A stretch of DNA of 64,000 nucleotides, from the sequence record MT446415.1. The stretch is one strand, 5' to 3'. Position 1 is the first letter of the stretch, and the number at the start of each line of letters is the position of its first letter. Under the pieces are notes generated by a model. The model had not been told where the DNA came from, did not search any database, and was given only the letters and a program-made list of their open reading frames with translations. The position numbers and the translations under genes were made by a program. Origin of the DNA: Escherichia virus TH44. Positions 1-50,966 of the stretch are shown one piece after another.

Positions 1-236
1 AATGAATAACCAAACTGGTCAGCGAACTTTTTAATTTGATTAACCAAACCGTATGGTAATTTACGATTGTAATCCAGGAGGCGGATTCGTCCGTCCCAAA
101 CTCCCTGCTTGAACTTTGGATTGAAGCGATAGTTTTCAGCTTCGAAGCTGAAGTAATCACGGAGTTCGTAGAAGATTCCATCTTCACATTCAACATGCAC
201 GTGACTAAAATTTAGAAAGTTGATTTTAATATCCAT
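1..236 (-). CDS. uvsW: UvsW helicase, N-terminal part (gene continues past window start)
   Basis: Reverse-strand ATG at 236; translation MDIKINFLNFSHVHVECEDGIFYELRDYFSFEAENYRFNPKFKQGVWDGRIRLLDYNRKLPYGLVNQIKKF resembles recalled T4 UvsW N-terminus; truncated by window edge. Confidence 0.8.
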   Translation of the reverse strand, partial: MDIKINFLNFSHVHVECEDGIFYELRDYFSFEAENYRFNPKFKQGVWDGRIRLLDYNRKLPYGLVNQIKKFADQFGYS

Positions 237-264
237 GATGATTCCAAGGTAATAAATATATCTA

Positions 265-272
265 TATTTATA
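265..272 (-). promoter_or_regulatory. T4-type late promoter TATAAATA upstream of uvsW
   Basis: Plus-strand tatttata = reverse-strand TATAAATA, about 29 nt upstream of uvsW ATG. Confidence 0.5.
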
Positions 273-290
273 CACTAACCGAGGTTCATC

Positions 291-956
291 ATGATTGACA
301 AGAACTACATTGAGGAAATTCGTGTCCTCGAGAAAAAAGAAGCCAAAGAAAAATTAGCTGAATATGCAGCATCACTTGGTGTTGATGTTAAGAAAACAAA
401 AACCTTTGATAATATGTTGGCTGACCTGGAAGCAGGACTTAAAGCATTTGCTGACATGCCTATGCCTGATGATAATGAAGGCCTGAGCATCACTGACCTT
501 ATCGATGCCGATGATGAATTGTCAGGTGCTAAATTTGATGGCGATGAGTCAGCTAAAGAAGAAGCTAAGCTCTTATTTGATGCTCCAACCGAAGCAAAGG
601 TTGAAGTTGTTGAAATCGAAGAACCAGTTGTTTTGGTCGAAGAAGATGTTCCTTTTGTCGAAGAAAAGTTCGAAGCAGCTGTTGCTAAGGTTATCGAATC
701 TGAAAAACCTGTATTTGCTCTGCCAAAAAACTTTAGTCCAAATCTTATGCTTATTGGCAAGAACCCTGGATTCTGTACTGTTCCATGGTGGATTTATCAG
801 TGGATTTCTGAGACTCCGGATTGGAAAGAACGTCCGACTAGCTTCCAACATCCTACTGCACACCAAACACTATTCAGCTTGATTTATTACATCAATCGTA
901 ATGGGTCTGTTCTAATACGAGAAACTCGTAACTCATCTTTTGTCACTTTAAAATAA
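291..956 (+). CDS. inh: Inh-like protein (prohead protease inhibitor position), acidic N-terminal half
   Basis: 221 aa ORF with GAGG RBS; immediately upstream of hoc as in T4; identity assigned by position and composition only. Confidence 0.55.
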   Translation: MIDKNYIEEIRVLEKKEAKEKLAEYAASLGVDVKKTKTFDNMLADLEAGLKAFADMPMPDDNEGLSITDLIDADDELSGAKFDGDESAKEEAKLLFDAPTEAKVEVVEIEEPVVLVEEDVPFVEEKFEAAVAKVIESEKPVFALPKNFSPNLMLIGKNPGFCTVPWWIYQWISETPDWKERPTSFQHPTAHQTLFSLIYYINRNGSVLIRETRNSSFVTLK

Positions 957-965
957 GGGTTTATT

Positions 966-2378
966 ATGGCTTATACCGTAGCTATTGCTCCTTTGGCGGC
1001 TACGGCCGTTATTGGAGCAACAACCAATTTCACTGCAACCGGCTCTGGCGCTGCAGCTGAAGGTGTTGAATCATTTGTATGGACCGTTAATGGCGTTCCT
1101 CAATCTTCTGTGACTGCAGCAATGGCTTATGTCGCTGTTGGTCCAGCAGGCAGTAAGACTATTAAAGTTGTTGCAACCACCACTCCAGCAGAAGGTGAAC
1201 CGGAAACTGCTGAGGCTGAGACAACTTTAACTATCCAGAATAAAACAATGCCTGCTATTACATTGACTTTAGACCCTGCCTCTGTTACTAAAGAAGTGGG
1301 ACAATCTCAAGTTGTTACTGCTAACGTGACGGGTGCTCCTTCTGGTGCAACAATCACTTACGTTTGGAAACGTAACACTAGCGTAATCGCAGGTCAAACC
1401 GGTAAAACTATTACCGTAACCGAAGCGGCGGCAGCAAATTATACATTGAACTGTGAAGTTACTGTTTCTGCACCCGATTATAATAATGGTACTGCAACTA
1501 AAGGAGCTGCGGTATCTTTTGTTAAGAAAACTATGACAGGTGTTTCCGTTACTTTAACGCCCGCCTCAATTAGTACAGAGAAAGACTCACCTGCACAGTT
1601 TAAAGCGGATGTAGTCGGCGCTCCGGTCGGCGTAAAGGCAACTTATTCTTGGAAGAAAAATGGTTCTATTATTCCAGGCGAAAGCAGTAATATTCTTGCT
1701 GTTGATACGTCTACAATAGGTTCTTACTCTATTGAAGTTTCGGTACTCCTAACAGGTGCGGATTATAATGATTTAACCGTTACCAAAACAGGAAGTGTAG
1801 CAATTACTAAAAAGACTATGACAGGTGTTTCCGTTACTTTAACGCCGGCTTCTATTACCGTCTCTGAAGGACTCCCAGCTTCTTTTAAAGCTACCGTAGC
1901 CGGCGCGCCTAGTGGTGCTACTTTTGCATATTCTTGGAAGAAAGACGGTTTAGCTGTTGCTGGCACCACGGATACCCTAGCAATCGATACAAGCGCTGAA
2001 GGTTCACAGGTTATTGAAGTTTCTGTTGTGGTTTCGGCGACTAATTACAACCCAGTGACTGTCAAAAAAACTGGTAATGTAACAGTCACCGCTAAAGTCG
2101 CTCCTGAACCAGAGGGCGAACTACCTTACGTTCATCCGCTACCAGTTCGTAATTCAGCTTATATCTGGTGTGGTTGGTGGGTTATGGATGAAATCCAGAA
2201 AATGACTCTTGAAGGCAAAGACTGGAAAACCGATGACCCTGATAGTGATTTCTATCTCCATCGTTATACTCTTCAAAAAATGATTGCCGATTATCCAGAG
2301 GTCGATGTACAAGAATCCCGTAATGGATATATTATCCATCGTTCGGCTCTTGACGCAGGTATAATTTATTTTTACTGA
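966..2378 (+). CDS. hoc: Hoc head outer capsid decoration protein with extra Ig-like domain
   Basis: 470 aa; C-terminus PEPEGELPYVHPLPVRNSAYIWCGWWVMDEIQKMT...YPEVDVQESRNGYIIH matches recalled T4 Hoc capsid-binding domain; repeated Ig-like modules. Confidence 0.9.
   Translation: MAYTVAIAPLAATAVIGATTNFTATGSGAAAEGVESFVWTVNGVPQSSVTAAMAYVAVGPAGSKTIKVVATTTPAEGEPETAEAETTLTIQNKTMPAITLTLDPASVTKEVGQSQVVTANVTGAPSGATITYVWKRNTSVIAGQTGKTITVTEAAAANYTLNCEVTVSAPDYNNGTATKGAAVSFVKKTMTGVSVTLTPASISTEKDSPAQFKADVVGAPVGVKATYSWKKNGSIIPGESSNILAVDTSTIGSYSIEVSVLLTGADYNDLTVTKTGSVAITKKTMTGVSVTLTPASITVSEGLPASFKATVAGAPSGATFAYSWKKDGLAVAGTTDTLAIDTSAEGSQVIEVSVVVSATNYNPVTVKKTGNVTVTAKVAPEPEGELPYVHPLPVRNSAYIWCGWWVMDEIQKMTLEGKDWKTDDPDSDFYLHRYTLQKMIADYPEVDVQESRNGYIIHRSALDAGIIYFY
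1531..1847 (+). repeat. Internal direct repeat in hoc (Ig-domain duplication, about 285 bp period)
   Basis: 32-bp identical segment actatgacaggtgtttccgttactttaacgcc at 1531-1562 and 1816-1847; protein KKTMTGVSVTLTPASI occurs twice. Confidence 0.8.
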
Positions 2379-2397
2379 TACCTAATTCAAAATAACC

Positions 2398-2411
2398 GGG
2401 CCGCAAGGCCC
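2398..2411 (+). other. GNRA-type hairpin GGGCC-GCAA-GGCCC between hoc and collagen-like gene
   Basis: Perfect 5-bp stem with GCAA loop; not followed by a T-run, so likely an RNA stability/processing hairpin rather than terminator. Confidence 0.4.
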
Positions 2412-2427
2412 TTAATCCGGAGGTTGT

Positions 2428-4458
2428 ATGAGTGTAGAAGTAATTTTGGTAACTAAGTACACTATACCTGAACTTATCCAAGCCGTTAATGAAAAACAAA
2501 CGGTTGGATATTTTCCTGCTTGTGGTGTTCTTTATTTTAATAATAGATTTACCCAATTAATGACCTTAGACACAAATGCTACAGAAGTTCCATCAGCACC
2601 TTATACCATAATAGCCGAACAAAACGGTGTTTTATGGGCGGAAGCCGCTTCAGCTTTTGTGGATGCAAATCCGACAGCAGAATGCTTATCACCTGTAGAA
2701 TATATAGATTCGCTATACATGCAAGCTTATGGGGACGCAAGGGCCGCATCCGGTGGCGGTTCGACGGGGCCTAAAGGTGATACCGGTCCAATGGGTCCAA
2801 TGGGTCCTCAAGGTATTCAAGGGCCAATAGGTCCAGAAGGTCCCCAAGGTTTAAAAGGAGAAAAAGGTGATACTGGTCCTCAAGGTCCTCAAGGTCCACA
2901 GGGAGTAAAGGGAGACACAGGAGCAACCGGTTTAACTGGGGCTGAAGGGCCACAAGGACCTATAGGTTTAACGGGCCCTAGTGGAGCCCAGGGTGTTAAA
3001 GGCGATACAGGTCCTCAAGGACCCCAGGGTTTGAAGGGTGAAAAAGGTGATACCGGACCGCAAGGCCCACAAGGAGAACCAGGCACCGGCAATGGCGGTC
3101 TGAAATGGTATACAGAAGATGCTGGTAAAACTTATCCTATTATAGATGTGGACCCAAATTTATCACAAATAGGAATGGGTAATCCAGATGGTGGATACGT
3201 CCAATTAAAATTTATGACCGGAGGCAATAACGCTGGACATATAATGGCTGATGATGGGACCATGACGTTATGGAAAACCCAGCAAAGCACACTCAATCTT
3301 TCGGATAACTCGGCAGCACTGCATAACCATGCCAACGTGGAACTTGCCAATGCTGACATGACGCTTAACATGGATGGGCGTGACTTGACTGTTAGTGATG
3401 TGGATAGTATTCGTCTCCAGCTCAATGCGGACAGAAGCGCTCTGGTGGCGCCGGCGGACGTTGCAAACGTGACAGTATCCACTGAAGGCACTGCACAGGT
3501 CATGGCTAATACTTACATCCAACTGAATGCAGTAAACAACAGGTCTATAATTCAGCTAGACGAATCCGCTATCACCACAAGGTCAGGTCGCTCAAACACT
3601 GAACTCACAGATGCTACATACCGTGCCAGTGCGCCGGACTTAGACGGCCGAATTTCGTTGACTCTGGGTCCGCATGCAAAGTTCCTGGCTACACCTACCA
3701 ATACTGCAATCAATTTTAGTAAAAGTACTGTAACAACCAGAATGCTCATGGATAGTACCGGGATAAACATTGAAACATTAACCGAGGCACCTGTGTTTAT
3801 ACGGAATGTCGATAAGGTGGTTTATACGGCTGATAAAGGTGTGGCTACCATTGGACGGGGTGATTATACACAGGTCGTTGACCAAACTGGGGTAGTAATC
3901 ACTACGGGTGCAGGTAATGTAAGCACTCAAAATGCCACTGGATTTATTAAAGACACTGCCGGCGAGTATCAGTACCGCATCGACAACAAATTGGTATTCT
4001 TCTCTAGTGGGGACATTACAAGAATTAACACAGATGCTTGTGGTGTTGAACTTGATAATGGTTCAGGCATTGCTTATAATAGTGGCACAGGCGAACATAC
4101 TTTTCTTGGCGGTAACGTAGCCCCAGGTGCGGCCAATATAAGTTTAGGTGGAGCTGTTGCTCCGTGGGCTTCAATTTATCTGGATAGTTCTACCCCACGT
4201 GTAATTCAGACCAACACGGCCCACGCGGAAGTCCCAGCTGCTACAATAGCTAAGATGGCTACACTTGTCCCACAAGCTCTGAACACAGCATCCGGTGGCT
4301 TCACAATGGGATATGTTTACGAGGATGTGATTGCAGCTTTAGGCGCCGTCGATGCTGAACTCTACGGGCTTGCATGGATGGAAGGCGGGAAGAAGGTCAT
4401 TAACCCTGTTGCAATACTTGCTATGGAGGCGTTATACGTTCGTAGTAAATTAGTCTAA
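2428..4458 (+). CDS. Collagen-like repeat protein (fibre-like), about 36 G-X-Y triplets plus large C-terminal domain
   Basis: 676 aa ORF with GGAGG RBS; residues about 112-225 are uninterrupted GPQGPQG/GDTGP Gly-X-Y repeats; inserted between hoc and rnlB-side small genes. Confidence 0.8.
   Translation: MSVEVILVTKYTIPELIQAVNEKQTVGYFPACGVLYFNNRFTQLMTLDTNATEVPSAPYTIIAEQNGVLWAEAASAFVDANPTAECLSPVEYIDSLYMQAYGDARAASGGGSTGPKGDTGPMGPMGPQGIQGPIGPEGPQGLKGEKGDTGPQGPQGPQGVKGDTGATGLTGAEGPQGPIGLTGPSGAQGVKGDTGPQGPQGLKGEKGDTGPQGPQGEPGTGNGGLKWYTEDAGKTYPIIDVDPNLSQIGMGNPDGGYVQLKFMTGGNNAGHIMADDGTMTLWKTQQSTLNLSDNSAALHNHANVELANADMTLNMDGRDLTVSDVDSIRLQLNADRSALVAPADVANVTVSTEGTAQVMANTYIQLNAVNNRSIIQLDESAITTRSGRSNTELTDATYRASAPDLDGRISLTLGPHAKFLATPTNTAINFSKSTVTTRMLMDSTGINIETLTEAPVFIRNVDKVVYTADKGVATIGRGDYTQVVDQTGVVITTGAGNVSTQNATGFIKDTAGEYQYRIDNKLVFFSSGDITRINTDACGVELDNGSGIAYNSGTGEHTFLGGNVAPGAANISLGGAVAPWASIYLDSSTPRVIQTNTAHAEVPAATIAKMATLVPQALNTASGGFTMGYVYEDVIAALGAVDAELYGLAWMEGGKKVINPVAILAMEALYVRSKLV
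2761..3095 (+). repeat. Collagen-type triplet (G-X-Y) coding repeat
   Basis: ggtcctcaaggtcc-type 9-bp periodic units encoding GPQ/GDT/GEK triplets. Confidence 0.8.
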
Positions 4459-4465
4459 AAAAAAA

Positions 4466-4493
4466 TGGGAGAGCGAAAGCTCTCCCATTTTTA
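4466..4493 (+). terminator. Rho-independent terminator after collagen-like gene
   Basis: TGGGAGAGC-GAAA-GCTCTCCCA stem-loop followed by TTTTT. Confidence 0.8.
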
Positions 4494-4494
4494 T

Positions 4495-5010: not shown

Positions 5011-5038
5011 TTTGCTTCAAATAAAAATGTGGTATAAT
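5011..5038 (+). promoter_or_regulatory. MotA-box middle promoter (TTTGCTTCA + 13 nt + TATAAT) upstream of rnlB
   Basis: MotA-box-like TTTGCTTCA at 5011-5019 and TATAAT at 5033-5038; followed by conserved GGTTCTAGACC also seen at 15208 and 40078. Confidence 0.55.
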
Positions 5039-5135
5039 GGTTCTAGACCCTTTGCGACTATTAATTCCTTTCAGAGAAAGAAAGTATAGTGGGTCTAATT
5101 TATAATGATATTTATAACATCAAAAGTGAGAGATT

Positions 5136-6143
5136 ATGTTTAAGAAATACAACAGCCTTGAAAATCACTATAACAACAAGTTCATTGAAAAGATTCGCCT
5201 GCAAGGCTTCACCAGCGGTGAATGGGTAGCTCGTGAGAAGATTCATGGTACCAACTTTTCATTAATCATTGAACAAGACAATGTGACATGTGCGAAACGC
5301 ACTGGACCTATCTTGCCTGCAGAAGATTTCTATGGTTATGAAATTGTATTAAAGAATTATGCAGATTCCATTAAAACTGTGCAGAAACTTTTGCAGGATA
5401 TTAATTACCAGGCATATCAGATTTATGGTGAGTTTGCCGGGGCAGGTATCCAGAAGAATGTGGATTACGGTGATAAAGATTTTTATGTATTTGATATCCG
5501 CGTTACTAAAGAAGATGGTTTTGAATCCGTCCTGACTGACACCTTGATGGAAGCATTCTGTATTATCCATAAGTTTAAGGTTGCACCGCGACTGGCTACG
5601 GGTAGTTTTGAAGAATTAATTAAGCTCCCTAATGACCTGGATTCCGTTGTCCCTGATTACAATTTCACAGTGGATAACGCAGGATTGACTACAGCAAATA
5701 CCACTGATTTTGCTGCAAAGGCGGAAGGTAAAGTATTCACTGCCGAAGGATTTGTATTAAAACCTGATGTTCCTGCATGGTTACCTAACGGTGAGCGTGT
5801 AGCGATTAAATGTAAGAACTCTAAATTCAGCGAAAAGAAAAAGTCTGATAAACCAATTAAAGCTGCAGTGGTTCTGAGCCAAAATGATATGGATTTACTG
5901 TGGAATTTCACTGATTATGTGACTGTTAACCGTATCAATAATGTTATCAGTAAAATTGGGGAAGTAACACCGAAGGATTTTGGGAAGGTAATGGGGCTAA
6001 CAGTTCAAGATATCCTGGAAGAAGCCGCTCGTGAAGGCCTTGAATTGTCCCTGACGGAAAATCCTGTTGAAGTTAAAAAGCAACTTATTGCAAATGTAAA
6101 AGAAACATTAAGACATGTTTGGATTACATTAATTAGTGAATAA
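5136..6143 (+). CDS. rnlB: RNA ligase 2 (Rnl2)
   Basis: 335 aa; [12 protein letters not shown]...[13 protein letters not shown] (adenylation lysine motif KxHG) ... [18 protein letters not shown] closely resembles recalled T4 Rnl2. Confidence 0.93.
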
Positions 6144-14556: not shown

Positions 14557-15048
14557 TTATTCCCACCAGTCAATTGCGAACGTTGTTTCGAACGTCTCAA
14601 TCTCATTATTACTGTCCCAATCCATCTGGACTTCCCCAACGTTGGTTGGCCACATGCCGGTAATAACAACTTCTTTCGTAACGGTCTTGCCATCACGATG
14701 GAACTGGCGGACAGTAGCGGTTTTCTTATAATCAGCAGGAGCTGCACCGGTGATTTCGTTAGTCATACCGTGACACAGATTTTGCCAATCAACAATTGCT
14801 TGACGAACTTTATGAGCATCGTCGTTATAAATCGTAATAGTCCAGTCATCAAATGTACGGTCGCCCGCAACGTTGATTTTACGGTTCATGTAACCGACAG
14901 GAACTTTTTCTACAATGCCTGCTGGCATCGGGGCTGCTTTACAATGGAAAGCAAAGTTTTTACCCAGGAATGGGATTTCGACTTCGAACAGGTTAGGGCG
15001 AGCAAAGTCGCCGGATTCGAAAGCGCGTGTGATATCGGTCAACTCCAT
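14557..15048 (-). CDS. 19: Tail tube protein gp19
   Basis: Start trimmed to MELTDITRAFESGDFARPNLF (ATG 15048, AAGAGGA RBS), matching recalled T4 gp19 N-terminus; the upstream in-frame ATG at 15099 sits directly beside the late promoter. Confidence 0.9.
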   Translation of the reverse strand: MELTDITRAFESGDFARPNLFEVEIPFLGKNFAFHCKAAPMPAGIVEKVPVGYMNRKINVAGDRTFDDWTITIYNDDAHKVRQAIVDWQNLCHGMTNEITGAAPADYKKTATVRQFHRDGKTVTKEVVITGMWPTNVGEVQMDWDSNNEIETFETTFAIDWWE

Positions 15049-15100
15049 TAAGGAATCCTCTTTATAGACACAGGTCGCGCGAACGCGTCCCTGATGCATG

Positions 15101-15108
15101 TATTTATA
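15101..15108 (-). promoter_or_regulatory. Late promoter TATAAATA for gene 19
   Basis: Reverse-strand TATAAATA 52 nt upstream of trimmed gp19 start. Confidence 0.55.
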
Positions 15109-15180
15109 CTAGGTAATATGATTCATCATCTCAAGATAATGTCTTCCCAGAATCAACCACAGGAGCCCGTAGAACCGATT

Positions 15181-15207
15181 ATGCTTTTATTTATAACACT
15201 GTATAAT
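15181..15207 (+). promoter_or_regulatory. MotA-box-like middle promoter oriented antisense to gene 18
   Basis: ATGCTTTTA + 12 nt + TATAAT followed by GGTTCTACGG; same architecture as 5011-5050. Confidence 0.4.
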
Positions 15208-15252
15208 GGTTCTACGGTTTCTAACTGATTAATTCATTCTAAGCGATGATAA

Positions 15253-17232
15253 TTATTGTGGCCCAATCAGCTCATCAAAATCAGCACCAGTGCTAGTGGC
15301 TACAAAATTAAGCTGTATATAGTTAATGCTGCGCGCAGGTTTATAATAAATGCTAGCAACGAACTCATTGCGGTCTATGACCGCTGGGGTGTTGTTAGTA
15401 GTATCACAAACCACACGACCTTCATAAATGCCACCGAGCGCACGAATACCATCCAAGTATTGAGAAGTTTCCATACGGAATGATGCACGAGTGAAGTTAT
15501 CGTTAAGCTCAAACAGTTTATATTTGGATGCGTCACCGATATTTTTCTTCAGCATATTCGTAAGACGACGAACGTTAATATGGTCCATCGGAGATGGAAC
15601 TTTAGTTGCAGTCTTATCACCATACAGAACAAAACCATCACCACCTGCGAAACCAACAACCGGGTTGATAGCTTCCTGATACATACGGTCACGTTGGGTC
15701 TGACGTGGTTCAACAGCCAATTTCAGAACGTTCAGAATCTGACCGCGGTTATAACCAGCAGGAGACATCCAAGGCTGAGAAACATCATCAGTACGAGCAC
15801 ACAGACCAGCCATATCAGCTGCCAGAGGAACCCAACGGTTAACGTCGTTATATTTATCATACTGATATTTATAGTTGCCATCAATCGCTGCATAAGTCGT
15901 GCTGATATTCATATTATCAGTATCAAATGCACCAGCACCTGTACGCCAGTCAATCAGGTTATCCACTGCACGGGTCAGAGGAACGTTAACCAACAGACCT
16001 TTCGGCGGGGAAATGAATGCCAAGCAATCCTGACGTTCGTCAGCAATAGAAACTACGTGCTTCTGAACAGTGGAAGCGGTCGCATCACCTTCACCAGCTA
16101 CTGCACCAGCGATAAGCAGGTTAATATGTAGAGCTTCACGGTCAGCGAACAGGTCCCAACCTTGCATCAAATCACCAGCGGTAATCTTATCGTTTGCAGA
16201 AATACCGCCAGACAGATTGATGATACCACTGAAGCCTACAGGCCAGTTGCGAGATGTTGCATAGATGTAGTTGGAAGTACCTTTTGCAAAGTAGTCATCC
16301 AGGTAAATGTTATTACCATAAACATCTTTTTCACCCTGCTTGGTAGACAAAACAACGTTTTCGACGATTGCACCATCACGGCGAACGATAATTGCATATT
16401 GGTTTTCGGACTGAGGACCGTAGTTAAACACTGCACGAGCCACAGAAGCACGCGTTCCGCCACCTGGGAAAATATTCAGATTTGTAGCCGCGCCTTTTTC
16501 GAATTCGGCTTTAGATACGATTTCAACTTCAAGTGTCGAACCAATTTCACCAGGATAAAGAGCAACAACACCCGGCATTGCATATTTTGCCAATGATGCC
16601 TGGAATTCCAGAGAAGTAATTGCTTCTTCACTATTTTCTGCTTCAGTCAACAGAATGCCGGAATCGGTAACAATTTTCCCAACAGTGATGGTACCAGATA
16701 CACCGGAAGAAGTGGTCGTAACTTCTGCAGTCCATGCGCTACCCAAATTAGGATATTGGTTAATAGTTTTGGCAAATGCAACAATCTTATCGGTAGGAAT
16801 AAAGATTGCAAGAATTTTACCATCAACATCGACCTTGGTCACGCGGCCAGCTGATTCAACAACAGTCTGATTGTGCTTAACCTGAATAACATCACCAACA
16901 GCATAGTTTGTACCAGCAGTTACAATGGTAGTTTCAATATTGCCAGCAATCGGGGATGCGTTTTTAGCTTCGTCGCGGTTAACAACACGTACAGTACGGA
17001 GGTCATTACCATATTGCAGGAAGTTCATCCCACTCATAAAGTAATCTGCTGTTTCATTATTCGGACCACCAAATAAATCAACAAGTTCAACTTCGTTTGT
17101 AATCTGAGTTACCTGGAAAGCTGGGCCCCACTGGAATTTACCAACCAGCGCCGCACGACCCGTCGCATTACGAACAACAGTGCTTTGGACCGTTGTTTCT
17201 TTGAGCTCAATGCCCGGAGATAATAAAGCCAT
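15253..17232 (-). CDS. 18: Tail sheath protein gp18
   Basis: 659 aa, same length as T4 gp18; between gp17 and gp19. Confidence 0.93.
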   Translation of the reverse strand: MALLSPGIELKETTVQSTVVRNATGRAALVGKFQWGPAFQVTQITNEVELVDLFGGPNNETADYFMSGMNFLQYGNDLRTVRVVNRDEAKNASPIAGNIETTIVTAGTNYAVGDVIQVKHNQTVVESAGRVTKVDVDGKILAIFIPTDKIVAFAKTINQYPNLGSAWTAEVTTTSSGVSGTITVGKIVTDSGILLTEAENSEEAITSLEFQASLAKYAMPGVVALYPGEIGSTLEVEIVSKAEFEKGAATNLNIFPGGGTRASVARAVFNYGPQSENQYAIIVRRDGAIVENVVLSTKQGEKDVYGNNIYLDDYFAKGTSNYIYATSRNWPVGFSGIINLSGGISANDKITAGDLMQGWDLFADREALHINLLIAGAVAGEGDATASTVQKHVVSIADERQDCLAFISPPKGLLVNVPLTRAVDNLIDWRTGAGAFDTDNMNISTTYAAIDGNYKYQYDKYNDVNRWVPLAADMAGLCARTDDVSQPWMSPAGYNRGQILNVLKLAVEPRQTQRDRMYQEAINPVVGFAGGDGFVLYGDKTATKVPSPMDHINVRRLTNMLKKNIGDASKYKLFELNDNFTRASFRMETSQYLDGIRALGGIYEGRVVCDTTNNTPAVIDRNEFVASIYYKPARSINYIQLNFVATSTGADFDELIGPQ

Positions 17233-38771: not shown

Positions 38772-39221
38772 ATGGCATACTCCGGGAAATTTAAGCCCAC
38801 CAATATAGAAAAATATAAGGGCGACTGGAAGAAAATACAATACCGGTCAAGCTGGGAGGCTTGGTTGATGAGATGGCTCGACAATCATCCGAACGTTGTT
38901 CAATGGGGCTCTGAGACTGTGATTATTCCATACTTCTGCAATGCTGAAGGGAAAAAGCGCAGATATTATATGGATTTCTGGGTTAAGTTTGATACAGGGC
39001 AACAGTTCTTTTTTGAAGTTAAGCCGTTAAAAGAAACAAGACCCCCAACCAAACCGGCTAATAATACCACTGCGAGTAAAAAGAGATTTATTAACGAAAT
39101 GTACACCTGGAGCGTTAACTCTGACAAATGGAAAGCTGCACAAGCTACCGCGGATAAGATGGGTATAACTTTCAGGATAATCACTGAAAACTCACTGAAA
39201 AAATTAGGATGGAAAGGATGA
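38772..39221 (+). CDS. 4: Head completion protein gp4
   Basis: 149 aa; [18 protein letters not shown]...YRSSWE resembles recalled T4 gp4. Confidence 0.88.
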
Positions 39222-40042
39222 GTATTTTTACATTTATCAATGAATCTGCAGATAAACCAGGTCCGAAACCCAGTAAATCAGAACAACAATGGGTTGAAAT
39301 AGGGGTTGAATTTTATACAGCAAAAGAAAAGGGAATGACCTCGAAGAAGTTTGCTGAAGAGAAAGGAATCAACTATTCGACCTTTACCAAAAGCATGTCA
39401 AGATATCATTCGAGAATTCAGACTGCTTATAAAGTATCCAAGCTCAAAAAGAAACCTGCTGGTAAACTTACGAAGGCTGAACGTCAGCTGATAATGGTGA
39501 ATAGCTTTAGAAAGAGCATAAGAGATAAGATTGCTAACGAAGGCGCTGCAAGCAACACCAAATCTGCCAGATGGTTCGCTGAGACAATTAAGAAATCAGT
39601 TCGTGGTCACGTAACGGCTAAACCCCAACCGGGTAAGATTTATGCTTATATCTATGATGCAAAGCATAAGGATACTCTTCCGTACTGGGACAAATATCCG
39701 TTAATCATTTATCTTGGGCTAGGTAAGCACAATTTGATGTATGGTTTGAACTTGCACTATATTCCACCGAAGGCACGTCAAGAGTTCCTTGAGGAACTTC
39801 TTAAGCAATATGCTAATACTCCTACGATTACGAACAAGACTCATCTGAAGATTGATTGGTCAAAGGTAAAGGGATTTAAAGGGGCTGACCAGATGATTAA
39901 AGCATATATACCTGGCAATATAAAAGGTACTATCACTGAAATCAAGCCCAGCGACTGGGCAAACGTGGTATTACTCCCCCTTCAGCAGTTCATGTCGAAA
40001 GGCAAAAGATATTCTTCCCAGAAAGTATGGAGAAATTCATAA
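39209..40042 (+). CDS. 2: DNA end protector protein gp2
   Basis: 277 aa, basic; T4 gene order 4-2-3-1. Confidence 0.85.
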
Positions 40043-40088
40043 TCTATTATCGGTCAGTGTTATTGGTAAGGACAAAAGGTCTAGAACC

Positions 40089-40116
40089 ATTATAACACTG
40101 ATTGTTTTAAAGCAAA
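40089..40116 (-). promoter_or_regulatory. MotA-box middle promoter on reverse strand, antisense to genes 2/4
   Basis: Reverse strand TTTGCTTTA + 13 nt + TATAAT + GGTTCTAGACC; same 17-mer as at 5033-5049. Confidence 0.4.
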
Positions 40117-40127
40117 CAAGGTGCACT

Positions 40128-40727
40128 ATGTCAGGTTTATATAATCAAACTAACACGACTAACTTTATATTAGAGGTGAGCGATTCAAACCTCACACAGA
40201 CCTTTAAACTAAACGTTCAAGACGTTACCCTCCCAGGGGTTCACATTCCTGTGACGGATGTTCCTGGCGGAACACAAGGTATAAATCGCTCCAGTCTTCC
40301 TGGTAGTACAATAGAATTCGACCCGCTGATTGTTAACTTTCTGTGTGACAAAGACCTAAGAGCGTGGCTTGACATCTATAAATGGATGCTCTCGCTCAAC
40401 AACTACATCACACACGAATCAAAAGCATGGCATCCGAAGGGTCGTCCCGAAGCGGTCACGCTTCATATCTTAGATAACAACAAGGACAAAATTGTCATGT
40501 CAATCCATTACTATGGAGCATGGCCGTCCGACCTGTCAGAGATTCAGTACTCATATAAAGAAGATTCTGACCCGGCTATCAATGCAACAGCAACTTTTAA
40601 CTTTAAGTCTTTTGCTGTAGAAATTGATGGTATAATAATAGAAGGTAGACCACAGATTGATAGTAATGCAGCAATGCAACAGGAAATCAGGTCTAAGTCA
40701 ATGCATCCATCTATGAGAAACGTATGA
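40128..40727 (+). CDS. 3: Tail completion and sheath stabiliser protein gp3 (by position)
   Basis: 199 aa ORF between gp2 and gp1. Confidence 0.65.
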   Translation: MSGLYNQTNTTNFILEVSDSNLTQTFKLNVQDVTLPGVHIPVTDVPGGTQGINRSSLPGSTIEFDPLIVNFLCDKDLRAWLDIYKWMLSLNNYITHESKAWHPKGRPEAVTLHILDNNKDKIVMSIHYYGAWPSDLSEIQYSYKEDSDPAINATATFNFKSFAVEIDGIIIEGRPQIDSNAAMQQEIRSKSMHPSMRNV

Positions 40728-45509: not shown

Positions 45510-45583
45510 GGCCCTGTAGCTCAATTGGTTAGAGCATCCGGCTCATAACTGGCAGGTTTCCGGTTCAAGTCCGGATGGGGCCA
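45510..45583 (+). tRNA. tRNA with CAT anticodon (Met by sequence; likely lysidine-type Ile as in T4)
   Basis: Cloverleaf folded by hand: acceptor GGCCCTG/TGGGGCC, D arm GCTC/GAGC, anticodon loop CTCATAA, T arm TCCGG-TTCAAGT-CCGGA. Confidence 0.8.
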
Positions 45584-45585
45584 CC

Positions 45586-45662
45586 CGGGGTGTAGCTCAA
45601 TTGTATAGAGCAACGGTCTTCTAAACCGTAGGTTGTGGGTTAGAATCCCACCACCCCGACCA
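45586..45662 (+). tRNA. tRNA-Arg (anticodon TCT), CCA encoded
   Basis: Perfect acceptor CGGGGTG/CACCCCG, D arm GCTC/GAGC, anticodon stem ACGGT/ACCGT with loop CTTCTAA, T arm GTGGG/CCCAC, 3' ACCA. Confidence 0.85.
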
Positions 45663-50626: not shown

Positions 50627-50966
50627 TCTTGCATCACATGTTTATCAATTGGCTGAATATGATATTGGTGCCAGTTTATTATTAGGGATACCCACCGCCA
50701 TGCTTGGTGGTTTGGTTGGTCTGGTAATGACCACGGTTATGGCTGCAATCGAGGGAGTGATGCCCATTGAGATGGGTTTCTTTATGATAATCGCTCCGGC
50801 TGTTGTGTCTTATTTTATCCCTGTTGTGTATGATATCTGCCACACAAACGCCGTGAATGCTCCTAGTCGGAAGAGATATGCTTCAGCAATGGCTGAGTAT
50901 AATAAGTTCCTAGACAAAACAAAACGTAATGACCTTGAAACCTTTATTAAGGAATGTAAATCATGA
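50613..50966 (+). CDS. Membrane protein with C-terminal ETFIKECK motif
   Basis: Trimmed start MERPSLASHVYQ (AAGGAGG RBS); hydrophobic helices. Confidence 0.6.
   Translation: MERPSLASHVYQLAEYDIGASLLLGIPTAMLGGLVGLVMTTVMAAIEGVMPIEMGFFMIIAPAVVSYFIPVVYDICHTNAVNAPSRKRYASAMAEYNKFLDKTKRNDLETFIKECKS

Follow-up and report, generated by a model that had tools for sequence, protein, structure and literature searches.

Why should a T4-like phage keep probable middle promoters that point backwards into its late genes? The question is raised by a 64,000-nucleotide stretch of Escherichia virus TH44 (MT446415.1, hereafter the window), in which a promoter-like element at 15180-15217 recurs at 5011-5050 and 40078-40116. 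T4 is the reference system for both middle transcription and R-loop replication origins. Region 18-19 of the window is 96–98 % identical to Gaprivervirus Escherichia phages (VR20, VR25, SP18, UPEC07 and others), which belong to the Tevenvirinae and are relatives of T4. The + strand of the window runs in the early (counter-clockwise) direction of T4 and carries rnlB and genes 4, 2, 3 and 1; genes 24 down to 5, including 20, 19, 18 and 17, are on the − strand. The genes neighbouring the three elements are rnlB (RNA ligase 2, as annotated in relatives; 5136-6143, +), gene 19 (tail tube; 14557-15048, −), gene 18 (tail sheath; 15253-17232, −), gene 4 (head completion; 38772-39221, +), gene 2 (DNA end protector; 39209-40042, +) and gene 3 (tail completion; 40128-40727, +). 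Neither motA nor asiA is found within the window; the genus encodes both, as annotated in the close relative VR20 (96–98 % identical).

The first-pass annotation had described three copies of a MotA box followed by TATAAT, and direct reading of the sequence agrees with it as to their places and orientations. Site 1 (5011-5050, +) consists of the MotA box TTTGCTTCA (5011-5019), a 13-nt spacer with TGn, TATAAT (5033-5038) and the box GGTTCTAGACCC. Site 2 (15180-15217, +) has the MotA box TATGCTTTT (15180-15188), a 13-nt spacer, TATAAT (15202-15207) and the box GGTTCTACGG, which extends to 15217. In site 3 (40078-40116, −) the MotA box TTTGCTTTA (40116-40108) is followed by a 13-nt spacer with TGn, TATAAT (40094-40089) and the box GGTTCTAGACC (40088-40078). 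The 13-mer TATAATGGTTCTA has exactly three exact matches in the window, where about zero are expected, each with a MotA box 13 nt upstream. When up to two mismatches were allowed, we obtained 9 matches against 2.4 expected, a number reached by none of 100 shuffles, and a degenerate regular expression for the start box matched 3 times against 0.09 expected from shuffles. Scanning the 64 kb for a MotA box plus −10 pattern gave only nine matches, and just sites 1–3 among them carry the start box. In whole genomes the exact pattern with the same spacing occurs three times in VR20, three times in VR25, and twice plus one variant in VR26. The copies are real and highly non-random.

The start-site box common to all three sites is TATAATGGTYCTAG. 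The reported identity of a 17-mer at 5033 and 40078 holds, as TATAATGGTTCTAGACC is the same in sites 1 and 3. The further claim that all three sites share their downstream sequence stands for sites 1 and 3 but fails for site 2, which continues as GGTTCTACGG and not GGTTCTAGACC: it has GGTTCTA in common with the other two and then reads CGG. The T4 middle consensus given in the literature is (a/t)(a/t)(a/t)TGCTT(t/c)A-N11-13-TAnnnT, with the MotA box centred near −30 and often with TGn. All three sites fit this consensus with their boxes and with TATAAT after 13 nt each time; TGn forms an extended −10 at sites 1 and 3, and at site 2 the TG directly abuts the −10. The roughly 60 ordinary middle promoters of T4 (Hinton 2010) likewise have a MotA box at −30 and a sigma-70 −10, with TGn in about half of them. 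Unlike our sites, most of them have A or T after the −10 (as do most of the 50 listed ones that we examined), and the examined ones all face the early direction.

By their sequence, sites 1–3 join the known class of MotA-dependent middle promoters as new members, in a subclass that includes the T4 R-loop origins. They would combine a host sigma-70 −10 with a phage MotA box, used together with AsiA, and the mark of the small and anciently conserved subclass would be the TGn extended −10 plus a G-rich start-site box (TATAAT-GGTYCTAG). We consider it very probable that the three sites are functional promoters, and from these elements we infer that they fire in vivo and depend on MotA.

Site 1 has an obvious gene to serve. 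It is located 86 nt upstream of rnlB, its predicted start is A 5045, and it is kept in about 32 Gaprivervirus records; it is the predicted promoter of rnlB, from which that gene would be transcribed. A degenerate second copy of the −10 and box, TATAGTGGGTCTA, follows at 5085-5097 (+). Its GGGTCTA can pair with the TAGACCC of site 1 into a stem at the extreme 5′ end of the predicted rnlB leader, the fold of which is predicted to be no better than that of shuffles. In the same leader region we noticed the late-promoter consensus TATAAATA at 5109-5116 (−), pointing backwards into the upstream + strand genes. This may be a chance occurrence, as about five such 8-mers are expected in the window.

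Sites 2 and 3 are the puzzling ones, as they do face antisense into late genes, as had been claimed, and have no ORF to serve. Site 3 lies within the 85-bp spacer between genes 2 and 3 and is predicted to start at A 40082 and to read genes 2 and 4 in antisense. Starting from gp3, we fetched the gene 2-3 spacers of other T4-like genera and recovered orthologues of site 3 in the same place and orientation in seven genera (Gaprivervirus, Dhakavirus, Winklervirus, Mosigvirus, Tequatrovirus with T4, Karamvirus and Gelderlandvirus). All aligned copies have an unchanged TATAATG, preceded at 15 nt (14 nt in Mosigvirus) by GCTT, which Winklervirus replaces with GCTA. With the −10 as anchor, the mean pairwise identity reaches 1.00 in the −10 itself, 0.55 in the MotA 9-mer and 0.57 over the 12 nt that follow the −10; in the spacer it drops to 0.32, and over the subsequent 12 nt to 0.34. 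Judged from this alignment, the pattern is that of a promoter under selection, with selection also on the start region. The promoter was not seen in the gene 2-3 region of Krischvirus phiS, Pseudotevenvirus Margaery, Tulanevirus phage 25, Klebsiella phages Roth80 and PhiK2046, or Providencia phage PSTCR6. RB49 and RB43, of the genera Krischvirus and Pseudotevenvirus, have no motA (Nolan et al. 2006). In phiS an endonuclease gene is found directly upstream of gene 3.

The T4 copy of site 3 has its −10 at 75988-75993 on the + strand and is missing from the table of about 60 identified middle promoters in Hinton 2010; the gene 2-3 spacer promoter merits annotation in T4-like genomes. In VR25, VR7, P479, UPEC07, TH22, TH55 and fPSFA, a MobB-like endonuclease gene sits at the end of gene 2 and overlaps its stop codon (1043-1702 in the fetched VR25 locus, the overlap matching 40040-40042 of the window). 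The spacer and the promoter are unchanged with or without this insert. The suggestion that the antisense copies are relics of cassette insertion is contradicted by site 3, where the same promoter in the same orientation is found in seven genera, with a promoter-shaped footprint that is unaffected by the adjoining endonuclease gene.

The surroundings of site 3 can also form structure. An inverted repeat, TCAGTGTTAT / ATAACACTGA (40054-40101), encloses the start box, with its arms straddling the −10 and box (z −3.6 to −3.9), and gives a large-loop hairpin right after the gene 2 stop codon. A stem of 7–10 bp with a loop of about 28–30 nt follows that stop codon in every genus (window 40043-40101; T4, Mosigvirus, Dhakavirus, Karamvirus, Gelderlandvirus). 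The stems differ in sequence between genera, and TAAT(T)CTATTAT follows the stop codon in several of them. The stem seems to be a structure that is conserved as such, either in the late message or in the DNA.

For site 2 the situation was more complex. It lies in the 204-bp spacer (15049-15252) between gene 19 and gene 18, and its predicted start, A 15214, is 39 nt before the gene 18 stop codon and antisense to it. Just upstream of the MotA box is the left arm, CCGTAGAACC (15167-15176), of a 10-bp perfect inverted repeat; this arm is an inverted copy of the start box, and the right arm is the start box itself. On either strand the repeat folds into a hairpin of about −28 kcal/mol, with z between −6.2 and −6.4. 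The spacer of site 2 also holds, on the − strand (15188-15195), a perfect match to the late promoter consensus, TATAAATA, which is aimed at gene 19 and is invariant in the aligned haplotypes; the same consensus is found again proximal to gene 19 at 15101-15108 (−). Across the window this 8-mer shows 4-fold enrichment, each time on the late-gene strand. As read from these elements, site 2 is a composite of a + strand middle promoter and a − strand late promoter in the loop of a very stable inverted repeat.

The spacer sequence around site 2 is restricted to Gaprivervirus (33 records), where the site is kept in 33 of 33 despite three spacer layouts. Across eight haplotypes a 37-nt island, TATGCTTTTATTTATA..C...GTATAATGG.TCTA, is nearly invariant and its flanks diverge strongly. 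All substitutions within site 2 fall in the spacer or the discriminator, and both TGCTT and TATAAT are free of them. The island is the sole recognisable part of the 18-19 spacer in VR26. At the corresponding position T4 carries a late promoter and a GC hairpin of unrelated sequence, and we found no middle promoter in the T4 gene 18-19 spacer.

The late promoter on the other strand accounts for part of this conservation. It could even be asked whether, at site 2 only, all that is conserved is a hairpin at the 3′ end of the gene 18 mRNA, the loop of which holds a late promoter for gene 19, so that the resemblance to a middle promoter is incidental. The invariant, enriched and strand-consistent 8-mer at 15188-15195, the very stable hairpin (z −6.4) and the presence of other hairpins just after gene 18 in T4 and VR26 all speak for this. 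However, the 8-mer is all that a T4 late promoter requires, which leaves the equally invariant TATAATGG(T/G)TCTA without an explanation. In VR26 the promoter core has persisted although the inverted repeat is lost, and the exact 13-mer that site 2 has in common with sites 1 and 3 cannot be incidental. We regard this explanation as very improbable.

Several records call a hypothetical protein over site 2, a 44-aa ORF at 15094-15228 (+) in UPEC07, P8 and pEC-M719-6WT.2. In RZ and VR7 only 12 codons of the frame are left, so that it is almost certainly no gene, and the annotation should be removed. The 18-19 spacer has another variable inhabitant, gene 19.1 (HNH-like, PHROG 5104), which in VR7, RZ and TH57 separates gene 18 from the island and in VR26 separates the island from gene 19 (1945-2550, 1097-1702 and 359-1042 in three fetched loci of relatives). 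Gene 19.1 shows weak endonuclease VII/HNH similarity with a DH...N motif and is absent from the phage of the window; its two versions are just 35 % identical. Because these two versions were inserted on either side of site 2, the spacer is an insertion hot spot.

Such insertions revive, in a broader form, the idea of a by-product or relic, in which promoter modules were copied into spacers through short promoter homologies or mobile endonuclease traffic and now fire to give RNA without a role. Hot spots of this kind adjoin both antisense sites (gene 19.1 at site 2, the MobB-like gene at the end of gene 2), site 2 is limited to one genus, and according to a review invading endonuclease genes can carry promoters that create antisense transcripts. 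Promoter/stem-loop cassettes, PeSL and PmSL, are moreover known in T4-like phages. On the other side, site 3 is older than the split of seven genera and has retained exactly its promoter elements, site 2 has survived in every one of its records, neither promoter faces an inserted endonuclease gene, and the copies are identical just in the −10 and box, with no cassette including flanks. Taken together, these points make a mere relic unlikely. A promoter serving, or left by, a homing endonuclease gene was likewise rejected, as gene 19.1 and the Mob-like gene are on the other strand or upstream and the presence or absence of the insert makes no difference to the promoter sequences.

The cassettes themselves were compared more closely. 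PeSL and PmSL are short conserved promoter and stem-loop units beside indels, PmSL being the middle-promoter version (Arbiol 2010; Comeau 2014). Our sites resemble them in being located at indels between close relatives, with gene 19.1 on either side of site 2 and the Mob-like gene beside site 3. The geometry is different. The PeSL stem-loop lies just upstream of the promoter, whereas here the arms flank site 2, straddle the −10 and box of site 3, and at site 1 the pairing partner is downstream. A PeSL promoter is followed by a Shine-Dalgarno sequence and a start codon, which is true here for site 1 only, while sites 2 and 3 face the 3′ ends of genes. Finally, there are just 4–5 copies per genome here, with about 20 nt in common. 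Neither the stem-loop geometry nor the downstream gene fits, and we rejected membership in the PeSL/PmSL family.

What, then, would sites 2 and 3 produce? The predicted products are transcripts that begin at about 15214 (+) and 40082 (−) and read gene 18 and genes 2 and 4, respectively, in the antisense direction; they are probably untranslated, judging from the ORFs. No ORF led by a ribosome site was found downstream of site 3. After site 2 we considered a 183-aa ORF (15580-16131, +) as a hidden gene and rejected it as an artefact of the antisense frame, interrupted in T4 by many stops. Neither predicted RNA folds better than its shuffles (z −0.6 for site 2 and +1.3 for site 3) or has a match in Rfam. 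A cis-antisense regulatory RNA is oriented opposite to its target, as sites 2 and 3 are, but no intrinsic terminator was found within 330 nt after either site in the seven genera. One weak terminator candidate at 39960-39946 was within chance. With no terminator, no structure above shuffles and no Rfam match, a defined small RNA from either site was rejected.

The orientation of sites 2 and 3 and their lack of coding capacity nevertheless suggest antisense control, in which RNAs made at middle times would pair with the late mRNAs of genes 18, 2 and 4, or hinder their synthesis by collision, and so delay or damp them. Possibly, for example, early read-through would be kept from yielding the DNA-end-binding gp2 until replication and recombination have started. 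The late genes 4-2-3 are oriented in the direction of early transcription, so that read-through from upstream is conceivable, and site 3 is conserved across the seven genera. Work of the 1970s described an "anti-late RNA" in T4-infected cells that was complementary to late messages, and we counted it in favour of this reading. The points against it are the missing defined transcript end and the unremarkable predicted structure of the RNAs, together with the shut-off of middle promoters at the onset of late transcription. Our literature search found no T4 antisense RNA with a demonstrated regulatory role. Such control would, besides, leave unexplained why the start box is shared with PuvsY, P34i and mRNA promoters. 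We hold antisense control to be possible but doubtful, and about as probable as the origin-type role discussed below; if true, these would be the first conserved, promoter-defined "anti-late" transcripts.

The start box is best understood from its distribution in T4. We joined seven loci into the whole T4 genome and searched it for the degenerate box, which gave exactly five box promoters against 0.22 expected, all with a MotA box and TGn. These are a promoter in the srd-modA spacer (11885, +), PnrdC.7 (53337, −), a promoter in the gene 3-2 spacer (75988, +), PuvsY/oriF (115383, −) and P34i/oriG (153023, −). The two on the + strand are on the wrong strand and absent from the Hinton 2010 list, and they are the only promoters on the T4 + strand that combine a consensus GCTT with TATAAT. 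PuvsY reads AATGCTTCA-N13-TATAATGAATCTAAGTCC, the wrong-strand gene 3-2 promoter AATGCTTTA-N13-TATAATGGGTCTAAGTCC and P34i TTTGCTTCA-N13-TATAATGGTCCCAGAG. In the srd-modA spacer (AF158101, 11856-11905, +) we read AATGCTTTA-N12-TATAATGAATCTAAGTCC, facing against the surrounding early genes; its 18-mer equals that of PuvsY/oriF. The five-member subclass of T4 contains both proven R-loop origins and two unlisted backward-facing promoters, one of them conserved in seven genera.

The same family can be followed outside T4. The T4-type 18-mer is present three times in other Tequatrovirus genomes. In VR20, the uvsY promoter (TAATGCTTTA-N12-TATAATGGTTCTAGACCC; UvsY Pfam E = 2e-50) has the same 18-mer as site 1, and P34i is conserved antisense in gene 34. 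Dhakavirus retains an orthologue of PnrdC.7 with the box, and its PuvsY, TATAATGGTCCTATGG, resembles its gene 2-3 promoter, TATAATGGTCCTAGGTC. Counted by hand, the boxes of PuvsY and the gene 2-3 promoter differ at 1–3 positions within a genus and at 4–6 between genera, a comparison of three genera that is too few for significance. It is suggestive of co-variation of the two boxes within genera. A weight matrix built from the non-T4 gene 2-3 promoters ranked PuvsY first of 50 and P34i second or ninth depending on the training set; this ranking was devised after the resemblance to PuvsY and P34i had been noticed. By these alignments the box family is old and tied to particular positions, with at least five members in Gaprivervirus, three of them in the window.

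Among known systems the closest to sites 2 and 3 is P34i/oriG. This non-coding middle promoter has a MotA box, a 13-nt spacer, TATAAT and a start box of the GG type (TATAATGGTCCCAG), and it points backwards in a late gene. It differs in lying inside a coding sequence and in its demonstrated origin activity, whereas sites 2 and 3 lie in spacers and are known from sequence. PuvsY/oriF has the same architecture, and in T4 its −10 and box, GTGGTATAATGAATCTAAGTCC, are almost the same as in the wrong-strand promoter of the gene 3-2 spacer, GTGGTATAATGGGTCTAAGTCC. Unlike sites 2 and 3, PuvsY doubles as the mRNA promoter of uvsY and is in this respect closer to site 1 with rnlB.

A middle promoter plus a downstream unwinding element is all that oriF and oriG require; both act via a persistent R-loop, and early T4 DNA synthesis begins mostly in late-gene regions (Kreuzer and Brister). 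A minimal T4 R-loop origin measures about 100 bp and includes a middle-mode promoter. The T4 record describes the primer RNA of oriG as opposite in direction to gene 34, and that of oriE as complementary to the transcript of gene 5. The layout of sites 2 and 3 is that of oriG, namely a box-type middle promoter that faces backwards with nothing to express, and by sequence they have the promoter part of an oriF/oriG-type origin. We therefore propose that the nascent RNA from sites 2 and 3 might remain hybridised behind the polymerase as an R-loop, which would open the DNA and prime replication within the late-gene blocks. Working middle promoters, with sites 2 and 3 in an R-loop role like that of PuvsY/oriF and above all P34i/oriG, are our best overall explanation, held with less than even confidence. 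The origin-type role as such is speculative; it is weakly favoured over antisense damping of late genes and still falls short of probable.

Several observations limit this proposal. Plasmid screens in T4 recovered only oriF and oriG, and the T4 gene 18-19 region has no mapped origin. The box is also present at ordinary mRNA promoters (PnrdC.7 in T4, rnlB here), which counts against it as an origin mark. It may simply be an optimal discriminator and start region for the sigma-70 RNA polymerase, with GG at −6/−5 and T-A-G at −1/+1/+2. A+T content was uninformative as a sign of an unwinding element: the first 50–100 bp downstream of the sites contain 62–68 % A+T, at the 66th–86th percentile, but the proven P34i, at the 21st–58th, is not picked out either, so the measure does not discriminate. 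GC skew was similarly uninformative as a sign of an origin, its turning points at about 6 kb and 38–42 kb merely tracking the switches of coding strand.

According to Kreuzer and Brister, T4 origins share no common motif and there is no middle promoter near oriE; in reviews, the priming of oriA and oriE is still open. The non-origin box promoters of T4 lie 4.9, 5.7 and 3.4 kb from oriA, oriC and oriE (P = 0.04, a value relying on an oriC position that is our own estimate). The first and last of these distances belong to the two wrong-strand promoters, at 11.9 kb (srd-modA) and 76.0 kb (gene 3-2), which point toward oriA and oriE. The papers searched mention no transcription start at 76.0 or 11.9 kb. 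A bolder idea is that TATAAT-GGTYCTAG with TGn and a MotA box marks R-loop priming promoters in general, so that the 11.9 and 76.0 kb promoters would be the missing primer promoters of oriA and oriE. If this were true, the gene 2-3 and 18-19 spacers would be replication origins inside the late-gene blocks of the present phage. We think this rather unlikely as a whole.

A few other features of the window were recorded. At 50877-50920 (+) there is a further good MotA promoter, TATGCTTCA-N12-TATAAT followed by AAGTTCCTAGAC, which is box-like but lacks the GG. Left of position 4494 (region 1-4494) the relatives no longer match, and a 676-aa ORF is found at 2428-4458 (+), where T4 carries hoc. Two tRNA genes stand side by side at 45510-45659 (+) and are the sole Rfam matches in the window.
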